From an uncultured Erysipelotrichaceae bacterium (lineage in GTDB: Bacteria > Bacillota_I > Bacilli_A > Erysipelotrichales > Erysipelotrichaceae), in contig CAMCRE010000004.1 of the NCBI GenBank assembly GCA_945877255.1, positions 26,484 to 90,483 of the forward strand: a stretch of 64,000 bases of DNA, in the 5' to 3' direction. This document shows, one piece after another, positions 27,006 to 39,002 of this stretch. Position 1 is the first letter of the stretch. Each line of letters opens with the position of its first letter. The notes under the pieces were generated by a model. That model was not told the origin of the DNA. It worked only from the letters and a program-made list of their open reading frames with translations, and did no database searches. The position numbers and the translations under genes were made by a program.

Positions 27006-27347
27006 ATGAAAACTGGAAAAGAATTTTCTATTATTTTATGTATTGCGTTATTAAGTACGTTTATTGCAAATTATTTACCATTACCAGCTAGTATTATATC
27101 ACTAATTATTTTATTTTTATTATTAATTTTAAAAATAGTAAAACCATCACATATTAAAACTACATCGAACTTTTTATTAATGTATATGCCATTATTTTTT
27201 ATTCCATCAACTGTAAAAATTATGGTTGATTATCATTTAATATCACCCTTTATTATTAATTATTTAATTATTTGTGTTATCTCCACAATTTTAACGTTTT
27301 TAGTGGCAGGTACAGTTGTTAAATTTGTTATGCGAGGTGGAAAATAA
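27006..27347 (+). CDS. lrgA: CidA/LrgA holin-like protein
   Basis: 113 aa, 4 TM, immediately followed (ATAATG overlap) by an LrgB-like gene. Confidence 0.8.
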   Translation: MKTGKEFSIILCIALLSTFIANYLPLPASIISLIILFLLLILKIVKPSHIKTTSNFLLMYMPLFFIPSTVKIMVDYHLISPFIINYLIICVISTILTFLVAGTVVKFVMRGGK

Positions 27348-28036
27348 TGGACGCAATTATTAAATCTCCTTTTTTTGGAATTTTTATTACATTTGTTGTT
27401 TATGAAGTAGTTGTATTTTTAAAAAAACATATCAAAAATGATTTATTTAATCCAACTATTATCACCACAATTATTATAATCATTTTACTTTCAATCACAA
27501 ACATTCCATATGAAAACTATAATAAAAGTGCTGCATTTTTATCTTCCTTGCTTTTACCTGCAACATGCGTATTAGCTTTGAATGTATATCATCAACGCCA
27601 CTTACTAAAAAAACATTTCGTCGCGATATTACTTGGTTGTATTTCTGGCGCTATTACAAGCATTATCTCGATTATTTTGCTGGCAAAAATATTCCCTGTC
27701 GATCCAATTATTGAAAAATCAATTTTAGCTAAATCAATCACTACTGCTATCGCAATTGATATTACAGCATCTCTAAACGGTATTATTTCAATCACTATCG
27801 TATCCGTTGTGTTTACAGGTATGATTGGTGCCATATTAGCACCTTTCTTAATCAAGTTGTTTAAATTCGATAATGAAATAGCACAAGGTTGTGCCATCGG
27901 AACTGCTTCACATGCTTTGGGAACCGCCAAAGCTATTGAGATAGGTGAAATTCAAGTTGCAATCGCAAGTGTTTCAATTATTATTACAGGTATTGCAACG
28001 GTGCTTATTATACTATTAATGACTTTATTAAATTAA
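27347..28036 (+). CDS. lrgB: CidB/LrgB family protein
   Basis: 229-aa polytopic protein with AQGCAIGTASHALGTA motif. Confidence 0.85.
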   Translation: MDAIIKSPFFGIFITFVVYEVVVFLKKHIKNDLFNPTIITTIIIIILLSITNIPYENYNKSAAFLSSLLLPATCVLALNVYHQRHLLKKHFVAILLGCISGAITSIISIILLAKIFPVDPIIEKSILAKSITTAIAIDITASLNGIISITIVSVVFTGMIGAILAPFLIKLFKFDNEIAQGCAIGTASHALGTAKAIEIGEIQVAIASVSIIITGIATVLIILLMTLLN

Positions 28037-28480
28037 TTTATCATTCTCTAACTGCAACAATTTTTGTTGCAGTTTTTTACCAAACGCATATCCTCTAATT
28101 TTACTGTTTTTACCTATTACACGATGACATGGAATAATAATCGCAATTTTATTTTTGTTGTTGGCATTTCCTACTGCTCGACACGCATTAATACGATTAA
28201 TTTTCACAGCAACATCTTGATACGACACTGTGTATCCATATGGTATTTCTAATAGTGCTTGCCATACTTGTACTTGAAAATCTGTCCCACTCATTTTTAT
28301 CGGAACACTAAATTTTTGACGCTTTCCTGCAAAATATTGTTTTAATTGCCGATGTGCTTCATCAGAAACAACAGTTCGAACACCTTCTTCATAATACTCC
28401 ACAAAACTTACACCTATTATAAAATTATCGTCGTACGTTATTTTAATCAAATAATCATCTATTTTATAAATATAAAACAT
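28028..28480 (-). CDS. ogt: Methylated-DNA-protein-cysteine methyltransferase
   Basis: IPCHRVIG active site. Confidence 0.9.
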   Translation of the reverse strand: MFYIYKIDDYLIKITYDDNFIIGVSFVEYYEEGVRTVVSDEAHRQLKQYFAGKRQKFSVPIKMSGTDFQVQVWQALLEIPYGYTVSYQDVAVKINRINACRAVGNANNKNKIAIIIPCHRVIGKNSKIRGYAFGKKLQQKLLQLENDKLI

Positions 28481-28519
28481 TTTATCACCCCTTGTTTTAT
28501 ATCATATTCCTTAATTTAA

Positions 28520-28561
28520 CACAACAAAAACCATTTCTACTGAAATTAGTAAAAATGGTTT
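28520..28561 (-). terminator. Intrinsic terminator after the EF-G paralogue
   Basis: AAACCATTTTTACT-aatttc-AGTAGAAATGGTTT plus TTGTTGTG on the minus strand. Confidence 0.65.
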
Positions 28562-28568
28562 AAATTTT

Positions 28569-30617
28569 TTATTTCAAAACGCTACTAACTAAAAATTCTG
28601 GCAATACTTCGTATCCGTCATCAACAGAAGTAAACGTTGCATTTCCACTCGTCATTGCACGTAAGTTCGTTGCATAGTCCACAACAGAAGCAAATGGTAC
28701 GCGTGCTTGTATTACTTGTAATTCATCAATAATATCAACAGCTAAAACACTACCACGTCGTTTATTAATATCACCAATAACGCTTCCTAAGTATTCTTCA
28801 TCACATTTAATCGTTAATATCACCATTGGTTCAAGTAATATTGGGTTCGCTTTTGTCATTGCATCTTTAAACGCTAAATGTGCTGCTAATTTAAATGACA
28901 TTTCACTAGAGTCAACATCATGATATTTACCATCTTTTAAAACACACTTAACATTAACCATTTTATAATTACCTAATGGTCCACTTAGCATACATTCTCT
29001 TAATCCTTCTTCAACTGCTGAGAAATATTGTTTTGGTACTGCTCCACCAAATACAGTTTCTTCAAATACCATTTCATCTTGACTATCACAATGTGAGAAT
29101 TCCACAAATACATGTCCAAATTGACCATGTCCTCCTGATTGTTTTTTATGTTTACCTTCTCCCATTACTGTTTTTCGTATTGTTTCTCGATAAGCAACTT
29201 TAATTGTATCTAATATTACTTCAACTTTATATTTTTTATTTAACTTAGAAACAATAACATCTAAATGTTGATCACCCATCGTTTGTAATACAAGTTCTTT
29301 CGTTTCTAAATTATTCGTTAAGACAACACTTTGATCTTCCTCACAAATTTTTTGTAATGCACCATTTAATTTATCTTCATCATTTTTAGACTTCGGTTTC
29401 ACACTTCTAAACATCATCCCTTTTTCAAACGCTATATCCGATACAAGGTAACGATGTTTCACATCACATAGCGTGTCATTAGTATTGGTATGATTTAAAC
29501 GCATAATTGCACCGATATCACCAGTAAACAGCTTCCCTACAGCTAACTGTAATTTACCCCTAACACTATAAAGTTGCCCAATTTTTTCTTCAACATCTTT
29601 TGTTGTGTTAAGTAAAACACTATCATTTTTTAATGTTCCGTTAATAACTTTCACATACGAAATTTTACCCACAAACGCATCAATTACCGTTTTGAATACT
29701 TTTAATACTACCGATTCATTTTCATCAATCACGATTTCACATAATTCATCATCTTTTTCAACTGTAACATGTCCAATTTGTGCATAACTAGGTAAATATT
29801 TAACAATAAGATCCAATAAACGATTTACACCCACAAATGATGTAGCACTGCCACTAAACACCGGTGTAATATCACCATTTAAAACACCTAGACGCAATCC
29901 TTTTGTAAGTTGTGTGTCATCAAAACTACCTTCCGTTAAATAAACTTCCATCAATTCTTCGTCATTCATCGCAATAGCGTCGTATATTTGCGTACGGTAT
30001 TCTTCAACTAATGATTTATATTGTTCTGGAACATCATAACTAATTGTATCGGATGCTTTTTCTCCTTTAAAATACCAAACTTTTTCACGTAGTATATTAA
30101 TCGTTGCGACTAATTCATTATTTTCATAAATAGGATATTCAAAAGGTATTACTGTTTTTCCAAACGTTTCTCTTAATTCTTCATATGTTTTTTCAAAATT
30201 CGTATTTTCTTCATCTAGTTTATTAATAAATATAATCGTCGGTAATTTTTTATTTCTAATTAATTTATATAATTTTTTAGTATAAGAACTAATATTTTCT
30301 TTACCATCAATAACTAATAATGCACTTTCTACTGCTGATAAACTTCCTTGCACTTCCGCAAAATAGTCAATATATCCTGGTGTATCAATGAAATTAATTT
30401 TGCTGTCTTTCCACTCAATTGGTGCTAATGCACTATAAATACTTGATTGCTTACGAATTTCATCAAAATCAAAATCTAACGCTGTACGAATATCTTTTCC
30501 ACTATTATCTAAACAATTCGTATATTCCAGCATTTTACATATTAATGATGTTTTACCTGAACCATTGTGTCCTATCACGGCAATGTTTCTTACTTGGTGT
30601 GACAAATAATCTTTCAT
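28569..30617 (-). CDS. Elongation factor G-family GTPase (EF-G paralogue, 682 aa)
   Basis: G1 GHNGSGKTS, G3 DTPG, G4 NKLD; domain IV GKYHDVDSSEMSFK as in EF-G. Confidence 0.85.
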   Translation of the reverse strand: MKDYLSHQVRNIAVIGHNGSGKTSLICKMLEYTNCLDNSGKDIRTALDFDFDEIRKQSSIYSALAPIEWKDSKINFIDTPGYIDYFAEVQGSLSAVESALLVIDGKENISSYTKKLYKLIRNKKLPTIIFINKLDEENTNFEKTYEELRETFGKTVIPFEYPIYENNELVATINILREKVWYFKGEKASDTISYDVPEQYKSLVEEYRTQIYDAIAMNDEELMEVYLTEGSFDDTQLTKGLRLGVLNGDITPVFSGSATSFVGVNRLLDLIVKYLPSYAQIGHVTVEKDDELCEIVIDENESVVLKVFKTVIDAFVGKISYVKVINGTLKNDSVLLNTTKDVEEKIGQLYSVRGKLQLAVGKLFTGDIGAIMRLNHTNTNDTLCDVKHRYLVSDIAFEKGMMFRSVKPKSKNDEDKLNGALQKICEEDQSVVLTNNLETKELVLQTMGDQHLDVIVSKLNKKYKVEVILDTIKVAYRETIRKTVMGEGKHKKQSGGHGQFGHVFVEFSHCDSQDEMVFEETVFGGAVPKQYFSAVEEGLRECMLSGPLGNYKMVNVKCVLKDGKYHDVDSSEMSFKLAAHLAFKDAMTKANPILLEPMVILTIKCDEEYLGSVIGDINKRRGSVLAVDIIDELQVIQARVPFASVVDYATNLRAMTSGNATFTSVDDGYEVLPEFLVSSVLK

Positions 30618-30618
30618 A

Positions 30619-31293
30619 TTAATTTACCCCCAATATATCTTTTAAATCATCATAACAAAATTCACGTACATAATCTAGTGCTTTTTTACCACTACTATCA
30701 GTTTGTTTAACATCAGCTCCTTTATTAACTAAGTGTGCAACTAATAATTTATCGCCCATAAATGCTGCTCGCATCAACGCATTTCTTCCTTCATGATCTT
30801 GTAAATTAATATTAGCGTGCTCATTAATCAATAGCTCAACGATTTCTTTTTTATGTGCTAAACAAGCTTCCATTAATGGTGTTCTTCCCATTTGGTCTTG
30901 GATATCCACAAACGCATGATGTTTCAACAATAATTCAACAATTCGTGTATGTCCTAAAAACGCAGCACGTGCAATACTACTTCTTCCTTTATTATCTTTC
31001 GCATTCACATTCGCATTCGCCAACAATAACTTCTTACAAATCGTTAAATTGTTGCGTTTACTTGCACCCATTAATGCTGTTCGACCACGTGAATCAACTG
31101 CATTCACATTTGCTCCATAGTCAATTAATAATTGGACGATGTCTTTATACCCTCTTTTTGCACTACGCATTAATGGTGTTCTACCATCATCATCACAATA
31201 ATTTACATCTGCTCCTGCTTTAATCGCTGCCATGACTTTAGCAACTTCTCCACTAGCTGATGCTTCCCATAACTGTTTTACATTCAAGTCCAT
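30619..31293 (-). CDS. Ankyrin-repeat protein (about 6 repeats, 224 aa)
   Basis: Repeated DxxGRTPLMxAxxxGHxxIVxLLIxxGANVN units. Its stop is 1 nt from the EF-G-like ATG. Confidence 0.9.
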   Translation of the reverse strand: MDLNVKQLWEASASGEVAKVMAAIKAGADVNYCDDDGRTPLMRSAKRGYKDIVQLLIDYGANVNAVDSRGRTALMGASKRNNLTICKKLLLANANVNAKDNKGRSSIARAAFLGHTRIVELLLKHHAFVDIQDQMGRTPLMEACLAHKKEIVELLINEHANINLQDHEGRNALMRAAFMGDKLLVAHLVNKGADVKQTDSSGKKALDYVREFCYDDLKDILGVN

Positions 31294-31311
31294 ATTTTTC
31301 CCTCCTTACGA

Positions 31312-31347
31312 CTTAATAAAACAAAAGCACACAAAAATTGTGTGCTT
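31312..31347 (-). terminator. Leader (attenuator) intrinsic terminator upstream of the ankyrin gene
   Basis: AAGCACACAA-ttt-TTGTGTGCTT (10 bp perfect) followed by TTGTTTTATT. It lies between the leader ORF stop and the ank RBS. Confidence 0.75.
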
Positions 31348-31406
31348 CAAGACATAAAAGTAGTACCACAACAAACAAATTGTTTTACATTAAAAACGAT
31401 TGTCAT
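31347..31406 (-). CDS. 19-codon leader peptide ORF MTIVFNVKQFVCCGTTFMS
   Basis: RBS GAAAGGAGTGG 5 nt before the ATG. The final A of its TGA (31347) is the first base of the terminator 5' arm. Tandem Cys codons. Confidence 0.55.
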   Translation of the reverse strand: MTIVFNVKQFVCCGTTFMS

Positions 31407-31432
31407 TGTAACCACTCCTTTCTGGTAATTTT

Positions 31433-31461
31433 ATTATACCACATTTTTTTATCGTTGTGAA
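31433..31461 (-). promoter_or_regulatory. Promoter of the leader-ank-EF-G-like operon
   Basis: TTCACA (31461..31456), 17 nt spacer, TGgTATAAT (-10 at 31438..31433). Confidence 0.6.
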
Positions 31462-31621
31462 TACATTTTTTAAATTTTTTTGCAGTTATAAAATTGATGT
31501 GAGAATTTTATTGAAAAAAAGAGTAAATATCCTATCATAATATTAACCAAAATGCTTACAACTTTTTTAAAGATTACTATTTTTATTTGCGTTTCCAAGT
31601 TGTCAACTATTTTATTATATG

Positions 31622-31657
31622 CAAATAATAAAAAACTCGCATTTTAACGAGTTTTTT
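31622..31657 (-). terminator. Intrinsic terminator of the surface-protein gene
   Basis: AAAAAACTCG-ttaaaatg-CGAGTTTTTT plus ATTATTT; includes the stop codon. Confidence 0.75.
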
Positions 31658-34600
31658 CAATATTCTTTATAACTAATAATGAACATAACGAAGCCACAAA
31701 AAGCATGTAATAATAATTTTTAGTATCATTCGTTTTAATATCTTCTTTTGGTTTCTTAATAATCTTATTTCTTACCGTAAACCCTTCAACAATTGATTCA
31801 TATCCTAATACTGGTTCTTCTTTAATTGTGTATTGAATTTTGTTTTGACCATCATATATCGGTAAGTTATCAATGTTTTTTTCAAAATTCATGGCTTTCG
31901 ATAAAATATGCTCACTATGTAATTTTCCATCCGCAAATAATTTAATCATGATTTCATCTGGACGAATACCGTTTTCATCATTGTTGTCATCCCAAATTTT
32001 TTGAATTTTGATTGTGTTAGTCTGAGTATTCGTCATCGTGATAACCGTATCAATGATAACTTTAGCAGTTGACGGATAATTGATTTTCACTTTATCTTGA
32101 ACTTCTAATGTAACTTTATCAGTTGCTGTTGGATTAAGTACATAGCCCTTGTTTTTGATTTGTTGTGCAATATCAATTAATTGATCATCGCTCAATTGTG
32201 TATCACCTTGCCAAATCGGTAATGATTCATTATTAGTATTTAATACAACTAATTTACTTTCAATATTTTTTTGTGTCAAAGCAAAATTAGGAAGTTTCTC
32301 TTCACTAATATCAATACTACTAATCATTCCTTTTTTTATAATTGATGTTGTAAATGCATTAGCATCATTTAAAACTAACGTATTTTTTTCATCATCCAAC
32401 ATTAATGATACTTCTAAAGCATTTGGTTTTTCATCCGCCAACCATTTTTTATGTATTCGAATATGCTCTTCTGGTAAATAATAGTTATTTCCCACTAATG
32501 TGAACACATTTTTTACATCAAGATCAGCTACTATTAATTCATCACTGCTATCATTTGGTGTTAATTTAGGAATACGTAAAATAAATTTATTATTCGCTTC
32601 CTTAACTAATTCCACAATGTATTCACCTTCATTATGCGTATTTTTAAACGTCCCTAAATTTCTTGGGAATGGCACATCATTTTCATCTAAATAATATTGC
32701 ACAACGATTTCAGCATCACTAGTAACATCTGGTATGACTAATTGAACTTGATCAGAAATTAGATCACCAATTATTTGATTTGAATTTTTTTGATATTTAA
32801 TATTTATCGGAATATTTTGTTGTTGATATTTAAGTGTGATCGGTATTTTACTAACGTTAATAATTCCACCAGGATAATCTTTTCCTAAAGTGAATTGCGA
32901 TGTTCCTTTACGTTTTAATTGTAAGTTTAAGCGTAAAGTATTACTTGCTTGTTGTGTTAAATAATAACCTGGTGTTAATTCTTTAATAATATAATGATTA
33001 TTTGGAATAGCTTTTTCACTTGGTAATTCATCAAATAATGCTGTCCAATTATTAGTTGCATTTAATGTTACTTCACGTTTCTCATTGTTTTTGAGAACTG
33101 GTTTTTCCTCACCATCTTCTACCATAAATAAACCAACTTTTATTTCTGATACACGTAATTCCTCCGGTATATGCTCCCAATTCTTACGCACATACAATTC
33201 GTTAAATTGATGATTGATCAATTGTATTGCACTATTTTCTAAATTAACGATACCATTTATTTTATAACCAATATTATTACGAGTATAGTCATCAGAAAAA
33301 CCGATATTATTTGGATAACCTGTTGTATCTAAAGCGTTTGTCCATAAATACGGTAACTCTATTTTTATAACATCATTTTCTGGTTCATGAATAATAATAC
33401 GATGTGGTTCATCAGTATAATTATACAAACCAATATAATTTGCGTATTTTTGATCTGTACTATGATATGTGATATTTAATTGTTTCTCATTACCTTCAAA
33501 CCATTCATGTACAATCTCTGTTGAAAACGGATTAACACGATCGTATTTTAAAATTGTATTTCTAGACTCGATAATATCATTGTTTTTGTTGATGAAATCA
33601 ATATTTAAATTTAGTTCAAGTGCTTCTCCAAAACTATCTACAGTACTATACTGATGATCTGGATTCAACCAAACACGCGTTAATTTTAACGCTTTACCCA
33701 ATTCAATAACTTCTGGATATGTCTTACTTGTATTACGCTCAACAATACGATATTGTAACCCTTTTTCAATTAATTGTTGTTTAGAATATGGTAAATTTTT
33801 AAAAGTTCCACGATAATTGTTTTGAGTAGATAACGTCATCTCACTATACTTGTTATTTGAAATATATAAATCTACATCAATGCTATCTGGAAAATTTTGA
33901 ACTGTGCTATCCCATTTTTTCTCAACAATTAATTCGTAATTTTGCGGTTCGCCAAGTGCCTTGATATTTGCGTTAGAACCAATTCCGCCACCTTTCAATG
34001 CTTCATTTTCTAAAATAAACATATTAGAATTTTTCCAAGCTTCTTGCTTAGTTTGTTCGTCTAACTGTGCTTTTAAAGCAACTGAATTGTTTGTGTCATT
34101 TAAATTTGGTGCAACTTCGCCATTATCTAAAGTATAACGTATTATTCCACCTTGTTGCGTTATTGGAGAAATATGCGTATAAAAATTCATAGACACATTT
34201 TTTCTATTTAAAAAATAACGACTCGCTTTACGTACCGTACGAATATCGCCACCTTGTTCACTTTCTGCAGTGTTATCAAAAATATAAACTGAATGAAAAT
34301 CTTGGAAATCTACTACTCCCACAGGGCAATTCCAATATCCGCCACCTTCTCCTGCTGAATATTGATATCGTTGACCATTTACTGCTCTATTTTTAGAAAT
34401 CAGTGTATTTTTTAAATTTAATGTATGTGGAACAATTGACATATACAATCCGCCACCTTGATTTTCAGCACTGTTTCCAATAATATAACCTTTATTTAAT
34501 GAAATCAGTGATGAATTGGCATAAATTGCACCACCGGCTGCACTATTATTACCATCAACATAAACTTTCGCTTTATTTTTATATAGCAAACCACCATTCA

Positions 34601-35798
34601 TGATTAATTCAGCACCCGCAAATGTTTTGTATTCGTCATATTGTATTGTAACAGTGTTAGAATAACTTACACCATCAAATGCTGTCACATAGTTATCATG
34701 AACTGCAATAGCCCCACCTCTTGAACTTTCATTTCCAGCAATAATACCATTATTAAGCTGTACAGTTGCATTGGCATCAACGTGGATACCGCCACCAATA
34801 TTTTCACTAAATGATTGCTCGCTAACATCGACTAAGCGATTATTAACGATATAACCACCATTTATAATTAATTGTGCTTTAGTAGTTGAAACTTCTTCTC
34901 TTGTGTTCGCAGCAGCCGCCCCCACAAATATTCCACCTACTGTAGCAGTATTATTATCAATACTTCCGCCATTAATCGTTAATGAAGCTGCATCAGAAAC
35001 ATAAATACCACCTGTACTGTAATAATCACCTAACCAACTTCCATCTTTACTTTTAACGTATGAAATATTTTTATTTTTTGTAATTCTCCCACCATTCATC
35101 ACCATGTTGGCGTTTTTTTCTAAGAAAATCGGTGCAGAATAACCTTTTTCATTATTGCTGTTAGTGATTGTACCACCATTTAATTGCAATGTTCCCTTAA
35201 CAACAATCATTCCTTTATTAGCGGTTTTAATTTCAGTATTGCCGTCAATTACTAGACCATCTTCAATAGATTGCCCTAATGTAAGTGTTGCATTTTGATC
35301 GACATTAATTAATTCACCACTAAATGTTGCACTTCTTTTTAATCCAGATACTGAATTTAACGTTGTACTAATCGCTAACGCTATTTCACCTTTTTTCTTA
35401 GCATCTTCCACTAGTTGCATACGTCTTTCAACACTATCATCTTGTTTTGGCAATTGAATGTTAGACTGCTCTTGTGTTCCTACAGGTGTTATTACTTCAC
35501 TTGTGGCAAGCGTAATATTTTTTCCTGCTGGGATGTTTATTCTACTTGTTACTTCAATTATATTTTTTAATATAATTAAACTGTTTTCGTTTTGTGGCGC
35601 ATCAATCATTGCTTGTTGCATTTCAGCAAACGTCGTTACTTCTTTTTGAAATGTATAGTTTATCATTCTATGATTATTCATTCTACTACTTGCTTCTTCA
35701 CCGTAAATTTTTTTACTCGTAAACACTGATAAAATCATTGCACAAACTACAATAATTGAGAATAATCTTATATAAATTTTAATTTTTTTATTGTTCAT
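31644..35798 (-). CDS. 1384-aa cell-surface protein: signal anchor, Pmp-like parallel beta-helix region, CnaB-type Ig-like repeats, C-terminal TM anchor
   Basis: Many GGAI/GGGI/GGGL/GGIY turns in residues ~200-610. CnaB-like starts KKWDS, RKNWEH, HKKWLAD, QKIWDDNNDENGIRPDEIMIKLFADG. The protein ends in a hydrophobic stretch plus KNIEKTR, with no LPxTG. Confidence 0.8.
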   Translation of the reverse strand: MNNKKIKIYIRLFSIIVVCAMILSVFTSKKIYGEEASSRMNNHRMINYTFQKEVTTFAEMQQAMIDAPQNENSLIILKNIIEVTSRINIPAGKNITLATSEVITPVGTQEQSNIQLPKQDDSVERRMQLVEDAKKKGEIALAISTTLNSVSGLKRSATFSGELINVDQNATLTLGQSIEDGLVIDGNTEIKTANKGMIVVKGTLQLNGGTITNSNNEKGYSAPIFLEKNANMVMNGGRITKNKNISYVKSKDGSWLGDYYSTGGIYVSDAASLTINGGSIDNNTATVGGIFVGAAAANTREEVSTTKAQLIINGGYIVNNRLVDVSEQSFSENIGGGIHVDANATVQLNNGIIAGNESSRGGAIAVHDNYVTAFDGVSYSNTVTIQYDEYKTFAGAELIMNGGLLYKNKAKVYVDGNNSAAGGAIYANSSLISLNKGYIIGNSAENQGGGLYMSIVPHTLNLKNTLISKNRAVNGQRYQYSAGEGGGYWNCPVGVVDFQDFHSVYIFDNTAESEQGGDIRTVRKASRYFLNRKNVSMNFYTHISPITQQGGIIRYTLDNGEVAPNLNDTNNSVALKAQLDEQTKQEAWKNSNMFILENEALKGGGIGSNANIKALGEPQNYELIVEKKWDSTVQNFPDSIDVDLYISNNKYSEMTLSTQNNYRGTFKNLPYSKQQLIEKGLQYRIVERNTSKTYPEVIELGKALKLTRVWLNPDHQYSTVDSFGEALELNLNIDFINKNNDIIESRNTILKYDRVNPFSTEIVHEWFEGNEKQLNITYHSTDQKYANYIGLYNYTDEPHRIIIHEPENDVIKIELPYLWTNALDTTGYPNNIGFSDDYTRNNIGYKINGIVNLENSAIQLINHQFNELYVRKNWEHIPEELRVSEIKVGLFMVEDGEEKPVLKNNEKREVTLNATNNWTALFDELPSEKAIPNNHYIIKELTPGYYLTQQASNTLRLNLQLKRKGTSQFTLGKDYPGGIINVSKIPITLKYQQQNIPINIKYQKNSNQIIGDLISDQVQLVIPDVTSDAEIVVQYYLDENDVPFPRNLGTFKNTHNEGEYIVELVKEANNKFILRIPKLTPNDSSDELIVADLDVKNVFTLVGNNYYLPEEHIRIHKKWLADEKPNALEVSLMLDDEKNTLVLNDANAFTTSIIKKGMISSIDISEEKLPNFALTQKNIESKLVVLNTNNESLPIWQGDTQLSDDQLIDIAQQIKNKGYVLNPTATDKVTLEVQDKVKINYPSTAKVIIDTVITMTNTQTNTIKIQKIWDDNNDENGIRPDEIMIKLFADGKLHSEHILSKAMNFEKNIDNLPIYDGQNKIQYTIKEEPVLGYESIVEGFTVRNKIIKKPKEDIKTNDTKNYYYMLFVASLCSLLVIKNIEKTR

Positions 35799-35981: not shown

Positions 35982-36650
35982 TTATTTAACTTTTCTAAAA
36001 TATTTATATAAAGTATCACCAATAAATTGTACGACAAACACAATTGCTAGTATTAGTAATACTGTAACCAACATTATGTCATCTTTAAATTCATTGTATC
36101 CATATTGAAGTGCAAACGATCCTAGTCCACCTCCACCAAAGCTACCAGCTACTGCTGAGAAACTAATTAAACTAATTAACGTTAATGTAATTGCTTGGAT
36201 AATGTATGGTAATGCTTCTTTTAAAATAACTTTGTAAATAATTTGAAGCGAAGTAAACCCCATTGATTCATATGCTTCAATAATACCTTTGTCTACTTGC
36301 AACAATGCTAGTTCAATTTGTTTCGCCATAAACGGAAACGTTCCTATTGCTAAGCTAACTGTTGCACCTTTAACACCGTATGGTGATCCTGCAATCATCT
36401 TAATTAACCACGGTATTGCTGAAATTAAAATAATAAACGGTATCGAACGCATCACATTAATACATTTAGAAAAAATAGAATAAATGAATTTATTTTCCAA
36501 TACACCATTTTTACCTAAACTATATAATAGTATGCCTAATGGTAATCCGATTAGTGTTGCATATATCCCCGCAAAAAACACCATCTGTAATGTCTCTTGT
36601 AAAGCTTTAATAATTAATGATTGATATTTAATTACATTCCCAAAAGTCAT
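35982..36650 (-). CDS. metI: Methionine ABC transporter permease
   Basis: 222-aa 5-TM permease downstream of MetN and MetQ homologues. Confidence 0.85.
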   Translation of the reverse strand: MTFGNVIKYQSLIIKALQETLQMVFFAGIYATLIGLPLGILLYSLGKNGVLENKFIYSIFSKCINVMRSIPFIILISAIPWLIKMIAGSPYGVKGATVSLAIGTFPFMAKQIELALLQVDKGIIEAYESMGFTSLQIIYKVILKEALPYIIQAITLTLISLISFSAVAGSFGGGGLGSFALQYGYNEFKDDIMLVTVLLILAIVFVVQFIGDTLYKYFRKVK

Positions 36651-37648
36651 TATTTAATCTCCTTTACTTGTACACCTTGTTTTGCTAAAACACTAATCGC
36701 TTCTTGAATTTGTGTTCCAGTAAACGCTATAATCATATTTCCGATTTTTCTTCCTACTAGAAATTCTATATTTCCAAATAAAATATTAACGTTAATATCT
36801 AATTGTTTTTGCAGATTAGATAAAATTGGTTGATCGACTACTTCCCCCACAAACGATAAACTATATACGTGTTCATGGTTTTTTAATACACTTTCTAATT
36901 CATCTGGATATTGTGATTGTTCCACAAACTGTTTAGTTGTTGGATGCGTTGGTGAAAAAAACACATCTAAAAGATTTCCTTTTTCCACCACTTTTCCATT
37001 TTCCATTACAGCTATCTTATTACAAATCGTTTTCACAACTTCCATTTGATGTGTAATCAATACAATTGTTACACCTAATTCTTGATTAATTTTTTTCAAC
37101 AACGATAATATCGAATGTGTTGTATTAGGATCTAACGCACTTGTCGCTTCATCACATAACAATATGTTACAGTGACGACTCAATGCTCTTGCTATTGCGA
37201 CACGTTGTTTTTGACCACCAGATAATTGACTAGGATAAGCATGTATTTTATCTTCTAAATCAACTAATTTTAATAATTCATGTACACGTTGCTTTATTGC
37301 TTCTTTTGTGTATCCTTTTGTGTTTTTTAATGGTGAGGCTATATTTTCATAAACCGTTGAAGATTGCAATAAATTGAAATGTTGGAAAATCATCCCAATA
37401 GATTCACGTTTCTTCAACAATTGTGGTTTTGATAGAGATTTTAATTCTTCCCCCGCAACAATAACTTCACCACTATCGTATTTTTCTAGTAAGTTTAAGC
37501 AACGAATTAACGTTGATTTACCAGCACCACTATAACCAATAATACCGTAAATATCTCCTTTTTCAATACTTAAAGTAACATCATCTACAGCATTAATTAT
37601 CGTGTTATTTAAGTGAAATTGTTTGTGTAGATTTTTAATCTCTATCAT
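36650..37648 (-). CDS. metN: Methionine ABC transporter ATP-binding protein
   Basis: GYSGAGKST, LSGGQKQR, LLCDEATSALD and a C-terminal NIL-type domain. Confidence 0.9.
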   Translation of the reverse strand: MIEIKNLHKQFHLNNTIINAVDDVTLSIEKGDIYGIIGYSGAGKSTLIRCLNLLEKYDSGEVIVAGEELKSLSKPQLLKKRESIGMIFQHFNLLQSSTVYENIASPLKNTKGYTKEAIKQRVHELLKLVDLEDKIHAYPSQLSGGQKQRVAIARALSRHCNILLCDEATSALDPNTTHSILSLLKKINQELGVTIVLITHQMEVVKTICNKIAVMENGKVVEKGNLLDVFFSPTHPTTKQFVEQSQYPDELESVLKNHEHVYSLSFVGEVVDQPILSNLQKQLDINVNILFGNIEFLVGRKIGNMIIAFTGTQIQEAISVLAKQGVQVKEIK

Positions 37649-37659
37649 GTTTATCCTCC

Positions 37660-38499
37660 TTATGGTAATACTTCAAATACTGGAATTAAAGTATCTCCGT
37701 TTTTAGCTTTTACAATATCAATTACGTTTTGTTTTTGGTAAGCATTTTTAATTTTTTCTAAAATTGGATTACCTTTATCTTCAGTTCTAATTGCAACTAA
37801 GTTCCAATAGTTTTTTGCATCTTTATGATTTGGATCTTCTCTAAATAATGCTTTAGTTAAATCAATTCCAGCTCTTTTAGCGATACCATCATTAATTGCC
37901 GCAAATTCTACTTCATCTAATGCACGGGGTGTTTGTTGTGCTTGTACTTGAATAATTTCTAATTTTTTAGGGTTTTCAGTAATATCTGCTAATGTTGGTT
38001 TTAATCCAGCACTTTCTTTAACTTTTAATAATCCATTAGCTTGTAAAATTAATAATGCTCTTCCACCATTTGTTGCATCATTTGGAATAGCAACTTTTGC
38101 TCCTTCACTAATTTCATTTATTGAATTAATTTTTTTAGAATAGAATCCCATTGGTGCAATATAAGTGTAATTTAAAATATCTAATTTTAAATTGTGTTTA
38201 GCTTTAAAGTCTTCAAAATAAATTACGTGTTGGAAAGCATTTAAATCAATTGATTTATCAGCTAAAGCCAAGTTTGGTTGAACATAATCATCAAAAGTTA
38301 CTAATTCAACTTTGATTTTATCTTTTTCCAAGTTTTTATTTACAACTTCCCAGTTTTCGTGGTCTCCTGCAGTTACGCCTACTTTAACTACTGTATAACC
38401 ATCTACTAATTTTCCTAATGATGGTTTTTGTTCAGTTTTTGTAGCACATCCTGCTATCGTTAATGCACCTAGTGCAAGTATAGTTAATAGTTTTTTCAT
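37660..38499 (-). CDS. metQ: Methionine-binding lipoprotein
   Basis: Lipobox LTIAGC; NlpA/MetQ family length and pattern. Confidence 0.85.
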   Translation of the reverse strand: MKKLLTILALGALTIAGCATKTEQKPSLGKLVDGYTVVKVGVTAGDHENWEVVNKNLEKDKIKVELVTFDDYVQPNLALADKSIDLNAFQHVIYFEDFKAKHNLKLDILNYTYIAPMGFYSKKINSINEISEGAKVAIPNDATNGGRALLILQANGLLKVKESAGLKPTLADITENPKKLEIIQVQAQQTPRALDEVEFAAINDGIAKRAGIDLTKALFREDPNHKDAKNYWNLVAIRTEDKGNPILEKIKNAYQKQNVIDIVKAKNGDTLIPVFEVLP

Positions 38500-38527: not shown

Positions 38528-38795
38528 ATAAAATAAAAATATCGTCCCTTTACTAATAAAGGACGATTTAAATCGCGATACCACCTTTGTTTATAAATAA
38601 CTCACGTTATTTACCTCATCGACTACCAACATAGTCTAGCACTATAACGGGTGCACCCGTTATTTCCTACTATTACTTCAGAAATACAACTCAAAGACCA
38701 TATTCACTTATTCTTTATTATCTTGTTCCACCTAACCAAGACTCTCTATAAATTCCAAACAAGTTACTCTTCTTATCAACGTTATTTTTATTTTA
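38528..38795 (-). promoter_or_regulatory. T-box riboswitch leader, probable Met (AUG) specifier
   Basis: Stem I elements GATAAGAAGAGTA, AGAGAG, GGTGGAA. GAAU-AUG-G candidate specifier at 38701..38699. T-box AAAGGTGGTATCGCGA (38590..38572). Terminator ATCGTCCTTTA/TAAAGGGACGAT followed by ATTTTTATTTT. Confidence 0.8.
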
Positions 38796-38925: not shown

Positions 38926-39002
38926 TGGCGTCCACGAAGGGATTCGAACCCCTGACCGTACGCTTAGAAGGCGTATGCTCTATCCAGCTGAGCTACGTGG
39001 AC
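38926..39002 (-). tRNA. tRNA-Arg (anticodon UCU), CCA encoded
   Basis: 77-nt cloverleaf. Acceptor GTCCACG/CGTGGAC, D stem GCTC/GAGC, anticodon stem TACGC/GCGTA, loop CT-TCT-AA, T-loop TTCGAAT, 3' GCCA. Confidence 0.9.

Follow-up and report, generated by a model that had tools for sequence, protein, structure and literature searches.

The leader of a two-gene operon was analysed in a 64,000-nucleotide (nt) stretch of a contig from an uncultured Erysipelotrichaceae bacterium (the window, to whose positions all coordinates below refer; G+C content, 30%). The operon, all of whose elements lie on the minus strand, encodes an ankyrin-repeat protein (Ank) and an elongation factor G (EF-G) paralogue of the EFG II, or EF-G2, type, and it is preceded by a short open reading frame (ORF) that ends at the base of an intrinsic terminator. 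We propose, with about as much confidence as doubt, that this leader is a translation-coupled transcription attenuator without an antiterminator, in which a ribosome trailing RNA polymerase (RNAP) would keep the terminator hairpin from forming; we infer this direction of regulation. An earlier note made from the sequence of this DNA alone had proposed that a leader peptide and an intrinsic terminator form an attenuator ahead of an operon of ank and an EF-G paralogue, and the analysis supports this. A base-by-base check found every sequence feature named there in its place on the minus strand, and more than 50 independent genomes show the same layout. Because the order of leader ORF, terminator, ank, and EF-G-like gene is repeated in so many of them, the arrangement stands well above chance. 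The elements of the operon in the window are as follows.

31433..31461, minus strand: promoter of the sigma-70/sigma-A type, found by consensus scan, with the -35 element TTCACA at 31461..31456, a 17-nt spacer, and an extended -10 element TGgTATAAT at 31441..31433
31415..31422, minus strand: leader Shine-Dalgarno (SD) sequence GAAAGGAG, 8 nt before the leader ATG
31347..31406, minus strand: leader ORF of 19 codons plus TGA, read from the sequence as the peptide MTIVFNVKQFVCCGTTFMS followed by the stop
31314..31348, minus strand: intrinsic terminator of the attenuator, found by scan and fold, with its stem-loop at 31348..31324 and its T-rich tail at 31323..31314
31300..31307, minus strand: ank SD sequence AAGGAGGG, read from the sequence
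30619..31293, minus strand: ank, 224 amino acids (aa), six ankyrin repeats (Pfam)
28569..30617, minus strand: EF-G-like gene, 682 aa, of the EFG II/EF-G2 type (Pfam, NCBIfam, and motif alignment)
28528..28561, minus strand: second terminator, ending the operon, a 14-pair stem plus T run found by scan

In a consensus scan of positions 28000..32000, the operon promoter was the top-ranked site, with 11 of 12 consensus matches plus the TG. Promoter-like sites overall were at chance level in this region (24 versus 24.9 expected), and terminator-like sites were enriched (6 versus 1.0 expected). Relatives have similar promoters at the equivalent position, and the predicted transcription start of the operon is placed from this promoter. 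The terminator hairpin, GAAGCACACAA-ttt-TTGTGTGCTTT, has 11 pairs and a 3-nt loop (-12.9 kcal/mol) and is followed by TGTTTTATTA; the G and A of the leader TGA are the first paired bases of its stem. The gap between ank and the EF-G-like gene is 1 nt, a spacing by which the two genes are judged to be translationally coupled in the window. The next minus-strand gene past the operon, encoding an ogt-type methyltransferase, has its own start. The promoter, leader, ank, and EF-G2 gene are best read as a single transcription unit.

The leader was compared across about 55 loci, in subsets of 50 distinct peptides, 56 distinct leaders (reading frames), 57 leaders (duplexes), 54 leaders (TTNTTT motif), and 45 distinct initiation regions. 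Nearly all of the loci have a promoter, a strong SD sequence, an ORF of 15 to 33 codons, and an intrinsic terminator upstream of ank. In the 45 initiation regions, the longest stretch of exact complementarity to the 16S 3' end is 6.3 nt on average and up to 9 nt, and the second codon is A rich in 26 of them; judged by sequence, leader initiation is strong. The frame that is set by the SD-defined ATG stops between position -2 and the terminator loop in 52 of the 56 distinct leaders, compared to 2 and 5 of the 56 for the other two frames, and a shuffled leader stays open to the terminator with a probability of approximately 0.16. The first stop base is at -1 relative to the stem in 29 of the 56 leaders, and this rule for the end of the ORF spans at least 15 lineages with unrelated stems. 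The peptides themselves are not conserved and make up 50 distinct sequences, those of the nearest relatives of the window locus (L002 and L093, EF-G2 75 to 76% identical) being MYHRIVKDLVYDVNNDTLSMSRST and MYYEDVKNIVYESNDTLSMSILST. Between close species, 1-base differences in T runs shift the C-terminal frame, and the ORF still ends in the hairpin (L049 versus L043, Holdemanella type; L055 versus L059, Erysipelothrix type). Because the 50 peptides differ, frameshifts are tolerated, and the end of the ORF is kept, the comparison indicates that selection acts on the reading span and not on the peptide. Among the T-run frame variants (L043, L046, and L047 versus L049 to L053; L055, L058, and L061 versus L059, L060, and L062), the ORF ends at the stem base (-1) in some and approximately 9 nt into the stem in others. 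Both states persist, and their cause could be natural polymorphism or an assembly error in homopolymers.

Three peptide- or codon-based signals were examined across these leaders. An apparent FF or SF near the C terminus, taken as a candidate arrest peptide, was rejected because it is the translated U-rich sequence that pairs with the leader SD (the anti-SD, described below) and disappears in frameshifted variants in which the nucleotides are retained. Release-factor-specific sensing at UGA was ruled out by the mixture of stop codons (35 TAA, 13 TGA, and 8 TAG). The earlier note had pointed to tandem Cys codons, and the leader could on that basis be a trp/his-type amino acid attenuator that senses the charging of Cys-tRNA. 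The window leader does read TGT TGT at codons 12 and 13, and the leaders contain slightly more Cys (1.7%) than the EF-G2 proteins do (0.7%). The suggestion did not survive the comparison: tandem Cys occurs in 1 of the 50 distinct peptides, that of the window, 32 of the 50 have no Cys, and the leaders of L002 and L093, which have the same terminator, contain none. There was no conserved codon run for any amino acid among the 50 peptides, no antiterminator was found (see below), and ank and EF-G2 have no link to cysteine metabolism. On these sequence grounds, Cys sensing by the leader is essentially excluded.

The terminator is conserved and, by sequence criteria, real. Its stem varies with compensatory changes, from AAGCACACAA/TTGTGTGCTT in the window to AAGCACGTAA/TTACGTGCTT in L002 and L093 (ACA/TGT versus GTA/TAC), and other genera have quite different stems at the same place. 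An antiterminator was sought with RNAduplex by pairing the terminator 5' arm with all of the upstream leader in 57 leaders, and none was found, the 5'-arm pairing being no better than that of shuffles (mean z, +0.59). The best upstream duplex of the window 5' arm was -5.4 kcal/mol (z, -0.10), and the candidate pairing TTGTtGTG:CACACAA was rejected at this chance level. The earlier note had seen no convincing antiterminator, and the lack of one turns out to be a conserved property of the family. A search of the window region against Rfam gave no cis-regulatory match at gathering thresholds, and permissive settings added only matches with an E value of at least 1, far below gathering. No sequence conservation was found in the leader outside the SD/anti-SD and the variable stem.

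Since neither an antiterminator nor an anti-antiterminator is detectable in any lineage, a ribosome stalled mid-leader leaves the terminator free and should favor termination. This tells against an alternative in which an inhibitor or translation defect stalls the leader ribosome and so turns on ank and EF-G2 to rescue or protect ribosomes, in the manner of erm, cat, ABC-F, hflXr, and tet(M). That alternative draws on the layout of many inducible resistance genes, in which a short leader and terminator precede a translation factor paralogue, on Tet(M) being an EF-G relative behind a leader-peptide attenuator, and on the presence of an ABC-F gene just downstream in one metagenomic lineage and an ABC-F-like gene upstream in another. 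In addition, a ribosome held at approximately the last four codons or the stop would cover the terminator 5' arm. It is countered by the lack of a conserved arrest peptide (50 differing peptides, frameshifted C termini tolerated), by the order-wide, vertical inheritance of what is a core module and not a mobile resistance cassette, and by the GTPase itself, which misses the thresholds for Tet-type protection (281 bits versus 775) and has EF-G-type domain IV loops. We consider induction by stalled ribosomes of the erm/cat/ABC-F kind, which is the main rival and does suit this class of gene, doubtful and rather unlikely. For a role of the pair in ribosome rescue or protection, the sequence evidence speaks neither way.

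In place of an antiterminator, the leaders of most lineages share a predicted helix, called P1 here, that would close the leader's own initiation site. Its strands in the window, and a nearby motif, are as follows.

31402..31424, minus strand: P1 5' strand, over the leader SD and AUG, limits approximate, from the minimum-free-energy fold
31349..31373, minus strand: P1 3' strand (anti-SD, ...GGUACUACUUUU...), in leader codons 12 to 19 and ending 1 to 8 nt before the terminator, from fold and duplex
31373..31378, minus strand: TTGTTT, a match to TTNTTT and a possible pause site, on weak evidence

The minimum-free-energy fold of the window leader shows both P1 and the terminator helix. The P1 duplex of the window has a free energy of -12.9 kcal/mol (z, -2.25; p, 0.037), and the duplexes of 57 leaders have a mean z of -2.95, with 36 of the 57 at p<0.05. 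Spacer sequences within P1 covary, for example, GGUGGUUGUAA:UUACAACCAC, GGUGUGAUUAC:GUAAUCACACC, and GGUGAUGCGUA:UAUGCAUCACC. An SD:anti-SD helix was independently predicted by RNAalifold on a MAFFT alignment of the leaders of 14 relatives, and P1 cells were paired in 93% of cases, versus 44 to 60% when the partners were slid. When 18 leaders drawn from every clade were aligned with MAFFT, the P1 3' strand was misplaced, and P1 rests on the per-sequence duplexes and the single-clade alignment. In the leaders of five Erysipelothrix-like metagenome-assembled genomes (L063 to L067), there is an extra hairpin of about 14 bp, AACAAAAGTGTTTG...CAAACACTTTTGTT, in codons 7 to 20; it has no counterpart in other clades, and P1-type pairing is weak there, which suggests a variant architecture. 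The TTNTTT sequence signals NusG-dependent pausing in Bacillus subtilis. It was present in 28 of 54 leaders versus 9.6 expected, with the end of the motif at a median of 11 nt before the hairpin.

The proposed mechanism uses these parts. With no competing helix, only physical cover of the 5' arm can defeat the terminator, and because the ORF runs to the first stem base or into the stem, a ribosome can provide that cover; the arrival of a translating ribosome at this point is the single feature that selection has maintained. By default, the U-rich 3' part of the ORF would leave RNAP and pair with the leader SD and AUG to form P1, turning leader translation off; the terminator hairpin would then form and transcription would end near 31316. 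For read-through, a ribosome would have to load at the strong leader site before the anti-SD strand emerges and then trail RNAP. This pioneer ribosome would cover the terminator 5' arm while RNAP is on the U tract, so that no hairpin forms and ank and EF-G2 are transcribed; in leaders with the stop inside the stem, it would meet RNAP before finishing the ORF. P1 would thus act as a timer that closes the SD once the anti-SD exits RNAP, and only a promptly loaded ribosome would count. The output would reflect how promptly ribosomes initiate and how closely they follow RNAP, a measure of translational capacity against the speed of transcription: a slower pioneer ribosome would lower the expression of ank and EF-G2, and a slowed or paused RNAP would raise it. 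The distances in the leader can be compared to this proposal. Of the 29 leaders that have the stop at -1, 26 have their last sense codon 34 to 40 nt from the point where termination is expected; in the window, this distance is 35 nt. In Escherichia coli expressomes, the ribosomal P site is 34 nt from the RNAP active site when the two are collided and 38 nt when they are NusG coupled (bioRxiv 10.1101/2020.03.01.971028). Because the 34- to 40-nt range matches these spacings, the geometry of the leader fits ribosome-RNAP coupling.

Several points weigh against this translation-coupled attenuator. It predicts lower expression under translation stress, the opposite of what is expected of a rescue or protection factor, and this response does not obviously match the starvation and stress roles reported for other EF-G2s. 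Bacillus subtilis RNAP is reported to outrun ribosomes, so a coupling mechanism would need a pause, for which TTNTTT is the sole candidate, and its enrichment is confounded with, and not separable from, the U-rich anti-SD. The expressome spacings come from E. coli. P1 is weak or nonsignificant (p, 0.1 to 0.6) in Traorella massiliensis, Longicatena-like, and Erysipelothrix-like leaders, constraint on the SD itself keeps covariation within its core modest, and four Traorella leaders have their stop 9 nt before the stem. Termination at the hairpin and translation of the leader ORF are both predictions from the sequence.

A different account of the same parts has no switch at all: a leaky terminator would set a low fixed level of expression, P1 and the hairpin would mainly fold into a stable 5' structure, protecting the mRNA and keeping the leader silent, and the ORF would tune basal read-through. 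The position of P1, which begins a few nt from the predicted 5' end, suits this account, since 5'-proximal helices stabilize mRNAs in Firmicutes, as does the lack of any conserved signal-specific element, whether regulatory codons, an arrest motif, or a ligand pocket. If translation into the terminator were irrelevant, however, an ORF open to or into the stem in 52 of 56 divergent leaders would be hard to keep, and the spacing from the stop to the termination site is narrow (34 to 40 nt). We regard the absence of any switch as improbable. A trans-acting factor, which could be Ank, EF-G2, or another protein or metabolite, might instead bind the leader RNA and decide termination, with the ORF secondary. 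Such control is common in its autogenous form in the leader RNAs of translation factor and ribosomal protein operons, and a short conserved palindromic motif is present between the terminator and ank in many genera, although not in the window. The lack of an Rfam match, the unconserved leader sequence outside the SD/anti-SD and stem, the usual binding of ankyrin repeats to protein, and the maintenance of the ORF, which would be left unexplained, make this very improbable. The motif (TTTGATYCA, TTGATTCAA or TGATCAGATCA) is partly palindromic and lies 15 to 25 nt before the ank SD (L007, L012 to L014, L017 to L021, L023 to L025, L034, L035, and L039). Exact TTGAT[CT] was found in 16 of 56 terminator-ank spacers versus 2.8 expected from shuffles, and it was absent from the window and its nearest relatives. 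The motif is too short for an RNA fold, so that it could instead be an operator for a protein or a site of processing.

The gene pair controlled by this leader was then characterized, beginning with the GTPase. The sequence motifs of the 682-aa protein identify it as an EF-G paralogue of the EFG II/EF-G2 type and not a generic EF-G; the motifs are placed in the window as follows.

30572..30549, minus strand: G1 motif GHNGSGKT
30386..30372, minus strand: DTPGY, with Tyr82 (codon 30374..30372) in place of the catalytic His
30224..30213, minus strand: NKLD motif
29138..29115, minus strand: domain IV loop SGGHGQFG
28925..28902, minus strand: domain IV loop YHDVDSSE

All five EF-G domains were found by Pfam. 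In an alignment of 60 distinct relatives with Staphylococcus aureus EF-G, the G1 motif is GHxGxGKT instead of AHxDxGKT, with Gly17 (S. aureus numbering) in 60 of 60 and an invariant GK(T). Switch I, RGITIT in EF-G, is KQSSIY in the window protein and R-G-[ILM]-S-[VI]-Y in the family, with Ser at the G2 Thr position in 56 of 60. A Tyr replaces the catalytic His after DTPG (DTPGY) in all 60 relatives, NKxD is kept in 58 of 60 and GSA in 54 to 60 of 60, and the domain IV tip loops KQSGGHGQFG and GKYHDVDSSE are invariant and of the canonical EF-G type. In EFG II proteins, G1 is GhxxxGKT with Gly as its first residue, and in EFG I it is AHxDxGKT (PMC3150367, PMC12172202); in the EFG II G2 motif, RGITI is relaxed to xxxSx, Ser replaces the Mg-binding Thr, and a "Clostridia" sub-subgroup has RxxSI (Margus et al. 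2011, PMC3150367). The family follows this "Clostridia" variant, in the form RxxS[VI]. The same Tyr is present in Thermus thermophilus EF-G-2, whose Protein Data Bank sequence (1WDT) reads DAPGY. Mycobacterium smegmatis EF-G2 has Y98, and the H88Y change abolishes the GTPase activity of EF-G1 (bioRxiv 10.64898/2026.05.25.727771). The EF-G2 assignment thus follows from the match of GHxGxGKT, Ser in G2, and Tyr for the catalytic His to the EFG II signatures. The call of an EF-G paralogue in the earlier note is upheld by these signatures, and its description of intact GTPase motifs is correct for GHNGSGKT, DTPG, NKLD, and YHDVDSSE but fails for the catalytic His, which is Tyr82, and for the altered switch I.

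Model scores were compared for the same protein. The best NCBIfam model was NF009381 (the "elongation factor G" subfamily PRK12740.1-5; 770 bits versus a cutoff of 583), and the EF-G2 equivalog NF009377 scored 499 bits, below its cutoff of 890. Canonical EF-G (EFG I, fusA) was ruled out by the score of its model TIGR00484 (547 bits, below the trusted cutoff of 659), by the three altered motifs, and by a location outside the str operon: the gene is not beside rpsL, rpsG, or tuf, and its neighbors are ank and ogt in the window and vary elsewhere. A Tet(M)/Tet(O)-type ribosomal protection protein was ruled out by model scores (281.6 bits versus 775 for tet_protect, NF012153; 174 versus 1420 for Tet(M)), by length (682 aa versus approximately 640 aa), and by the EF-G-type domain IV loops. 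The closest solved structure is S. aureus EF-G (464 bits, 34% identity), solved EF-G2s scoring 334 to 344 bits; the G domain is 27% identical to that of T. thermophilus EF-G-2 and 29% identical to that of S. aureus EF-G. No second EF-G gene is present within the 64-kb window, and by the rule in PMC3150367 the same genome should carry an EFG I alongside EF-G2. By homology, the EF-G2 would be a ribosome-binding, GTP-binding factor that reaches the decoding center as EF-G does. Its nucleotide-binding and decoding center loops are intact, and because the catalytic His is missing, its ribosome-stimulated GTP hydrolysis is probably weak or absent. Reported EF-G2 activities conflict: that of Thermus is a ribosome-dependent GTPase with translocation, that of Bacteroides shows slow translocation, and that of mycobacteria traps post-translocation ribosomes under stress, as reported for M. 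smegmatis (bioRxiv 10.64898/2026.05.25.727771). The literature on other EF-G2s suggests translocation that is slow or independent of GTPase activity, or else the trapping of ribosomes under stress.

The ank product is a cytoplasmic ankyrin-repeat protein without a catalytic domain (Pfam Ank_2, 7.7e-58; Ank, 8.9e-38), with at least four matched stretches over residues 8 to 212. We scanned one genome per species in GTDB with patterns derived by aligning five ank orthologues and found 58 Erysipelotrichales loci (ank 47 to 57% identical). These included Traorella, Faecalicoccus, Faecalitalea, Holdemanella, Longicatena, Dielma, Breznakia, Absicoccus, Catenisphaera, Floccifex, Solobacterium, and Erysipelothrix. 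The orthologues overall are 47 to 88% identical, and each adjoins an EF-G2 gene. EF-G2 was immediately downstream of ank in 57 of the 57 loci with sufficient downstream sequence, and in the reverse direction, ank was directly upstream in 9 of 9 EF-G2 homologues (52 to 76% identical) on fetched contigs. The earlier note had set this co-conservation in advance as a test of its proposal, and the pairing held throughout. Several metagenomic contigs also carry ank directly upstream of an EF-G-like gene, and in the same scan no EF-G adjoined the ankyrin proteins of other phyla (at most 39% identity). Because the genes flanking the pair vary among lineages, ank and EF-G2 persist as a unit, and they are a core module that is inherited vertically, occurs in all of the Erysipelotrichales genomes sampled, and is not a mobile cassette. 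Directly downstream of EF-G2 in one metagenomic lineage is an ABC-F-type gene (ABC_tran, ABC_tran_Xtn, ABC_tran, and CTD; L004, 2250..4025), and directly upstream of the leader in another is a gene for a protein with two ABC domains that is ABC-F-like (L092, 538..2085). These neighbors could reflect chance or a loose translation factor neighborhood.

Ankyrin repeats are, as a rule, protein-binding modules, and the simplest reading of the pairing is that Ank may be a dedicated binding partner of EF-G2, by analogy with other such partners (see below); we infer the contact between them. The earlier note knew of no described module of an ankyrin protein and an EF-G paralogue, and full-text literature searches likewise returned none. 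Searches for ankyrin with an EF-G paralogue, EF-G2, or Erysipelotrichia gave nothing relevant, and Margus et al. (PMC3150367) mention no ankyrin context for EFG II genes. The two halves of the operon can be joined in one broader reading, which we consider unlikely: Ank and EF-G2 would be an obligate ribosome-associated system in which Ank loads, releases, or gates a GTPase-impaired EF-G2 in place of GTP hydrolysis. The leader, with its SD-closing timer and terminator occlusion, would be a new type of sensor, for the supply of free ribosomes and for transcription-translation coupling, that turns the pair on when ribosomes exceed transcription and, through feedback, turns it off when translation slows. 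If true, the Erysipelotrichales would give the EF-G2 class its first genetic partner and its first defined regulatory input.

Leader-peptide attenuators and EF-G2 proteins are both already known kinds. What appears to be new is the order-wide fixed pairing of the ankyrin protein with EF-G2, and also the leader with an SD-closing helix, a stop at the terminator base, and no antiterminator, together with its link to ank and EF-G2. EF-G2 (EFG II) is widespread and its function is unsettled, and this locus adds two handles on it in the gut- and animal-associated Erysipelotrichales. The first is the invariably co-encoded ankyrin partner, a candidate cofactor, and the second is a conserved leader design that would tie EF-G2 expression to a pioneer ribosome initiating and pacing RNAP. 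The leader would be a compact natural case of attenuation without an antiterminator, and it could report transcription-translation coupling in Firmicutes, where coupling is debated.

Other features of the window were noted near the operon. Immediately upstream is a 1384-aa ORF (31644..35798, minus strand) with three C-terminal Cna_B domains and no NCBIfam match, large and surface-adhesin-like, which is ended by its own bidirectional terminator (31630..31657). Farther upstream, a methionine ABC transporter of the metQ/metN/metI type (35982..38499, minus strand; NlpA lipoprotein, ABC+NIL ATPase, and permease) is preceded by a T-box leader (38556..38788, minus strand; Rfam, 137 bits). Approximately 140 nt upstream of the T-box is a tRNA-Arg(TCT) gene (38926..39002, also on the minus strand), and the T-box region looks ordinary. 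Downstream of the operon are the ogt-type O6-methylguanine methyltransferase gene (28028..28480, minus strand) and an lrgA/lrgB-like pair (27006..28036, plus strand), the ogt stop convergently overlapping the lrgB stop region.

The operon was compared to known systems, first at the level of its proteins. The window GTPase shares with the EFG II proteins T. thermophilus EF-G-2, M. smegmatis EF-G2, and Bacteroides thetaiotaomicron EF-G2 the five-domain EF-G architecture, a Gly-first G1, Ser in G2, the retention of DxPG, NKxD, and gSA, and a location outside the str operon; the change from the catalytic His to Tyr is common to the window protein, 1WDT, and Y98 of the M. smegmatis protein. It differs in that its raw scores are nearer to canonical EF-G structures than to solved EF-G2s and its NF009377 score is below the cutoff, and in that an ankyrin gene and a leader-peptide attenuator are always upstream, neither of which has been reported for any EF-G2. 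FusB-type proteins attach to EF-G and help it leave the ribosome, and Hgh1 is a repeat-protein chaperone of eEF2. The likeness of Ank to these is one of analogy only, that of a small nonenzymatic protein possibly dedicated to one translocase family protein and here co-encoded and co-expressed with it; ankyrin repeats are unrelated in sequence and fold to the FusB fold and to the ARM-like repeats of Hgh1.

Among attenuators, ermC, ermK, cat, the ABC-F genes (vmlR, lmo0919, and msrD), and hflXr have in common with the present leader a promoter-proximal short ORF with an SD, followed by a blocking structure in front of a factor that acts on the ribosome. In those systems, a stall that is specific to the drug and the peptide makes an antiterminator or a downstream SD available, whereas the present leader has no alternative pairing for its terminator, its peptides are unconserved, and the sequestered SD is its own. 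For the leader of Tn916 tet(M) (orf12), the model of Su et al. (1992) invokes rare codons and aminoacyl-tRNA pools raised by tetracycline, so that faster leader translation leads to antitermination; this model is described as poorly tested, with no toeprint on the leader ribosome-binding site (bioRxiv 10.1101/2021.03.24.436905). The two leaders share a short ORF and an intrinsic terminator before an EF-G family gene, and a proposed logic in which a ribosome that keeps up with RNAP brings about antitermination, without a classical stalled-ribosome antiterminator. They differ in that tet(M) is mobile and its leader has rare codons, whereas the present leader is chromosomal and order-wide, with no conserved codon bias, an SD-sequestering helix, and a stop fixed at the stem base. 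E. coli pyrBI has a UTP-sensing leader ORF that extends through the terminator and beyond it, U-rich pauses upstream of the terminator synchronizing the ribosome with RNAP, and in the ampC attenuator, ribosome availability sets read-through. Common to pyrBI, ampC, and the mechanism proposed here is that read-through needs a ribosome right behind RNAP to block the hairpin, with no antiterminator. The present ORF differs from that of pyrBI in stopping at the stem base or inside the stem, in having its own SD sequestered by its 3' end, and in preceding translation-related genes. As ribosome occlusion requires, the leader ORF reaches or overlaps the terminator in 52 of the 56 leaders, the window stop overlapping the first stem bases, and the leader is best read as one of the pyrBI/tet(M)-model kind.

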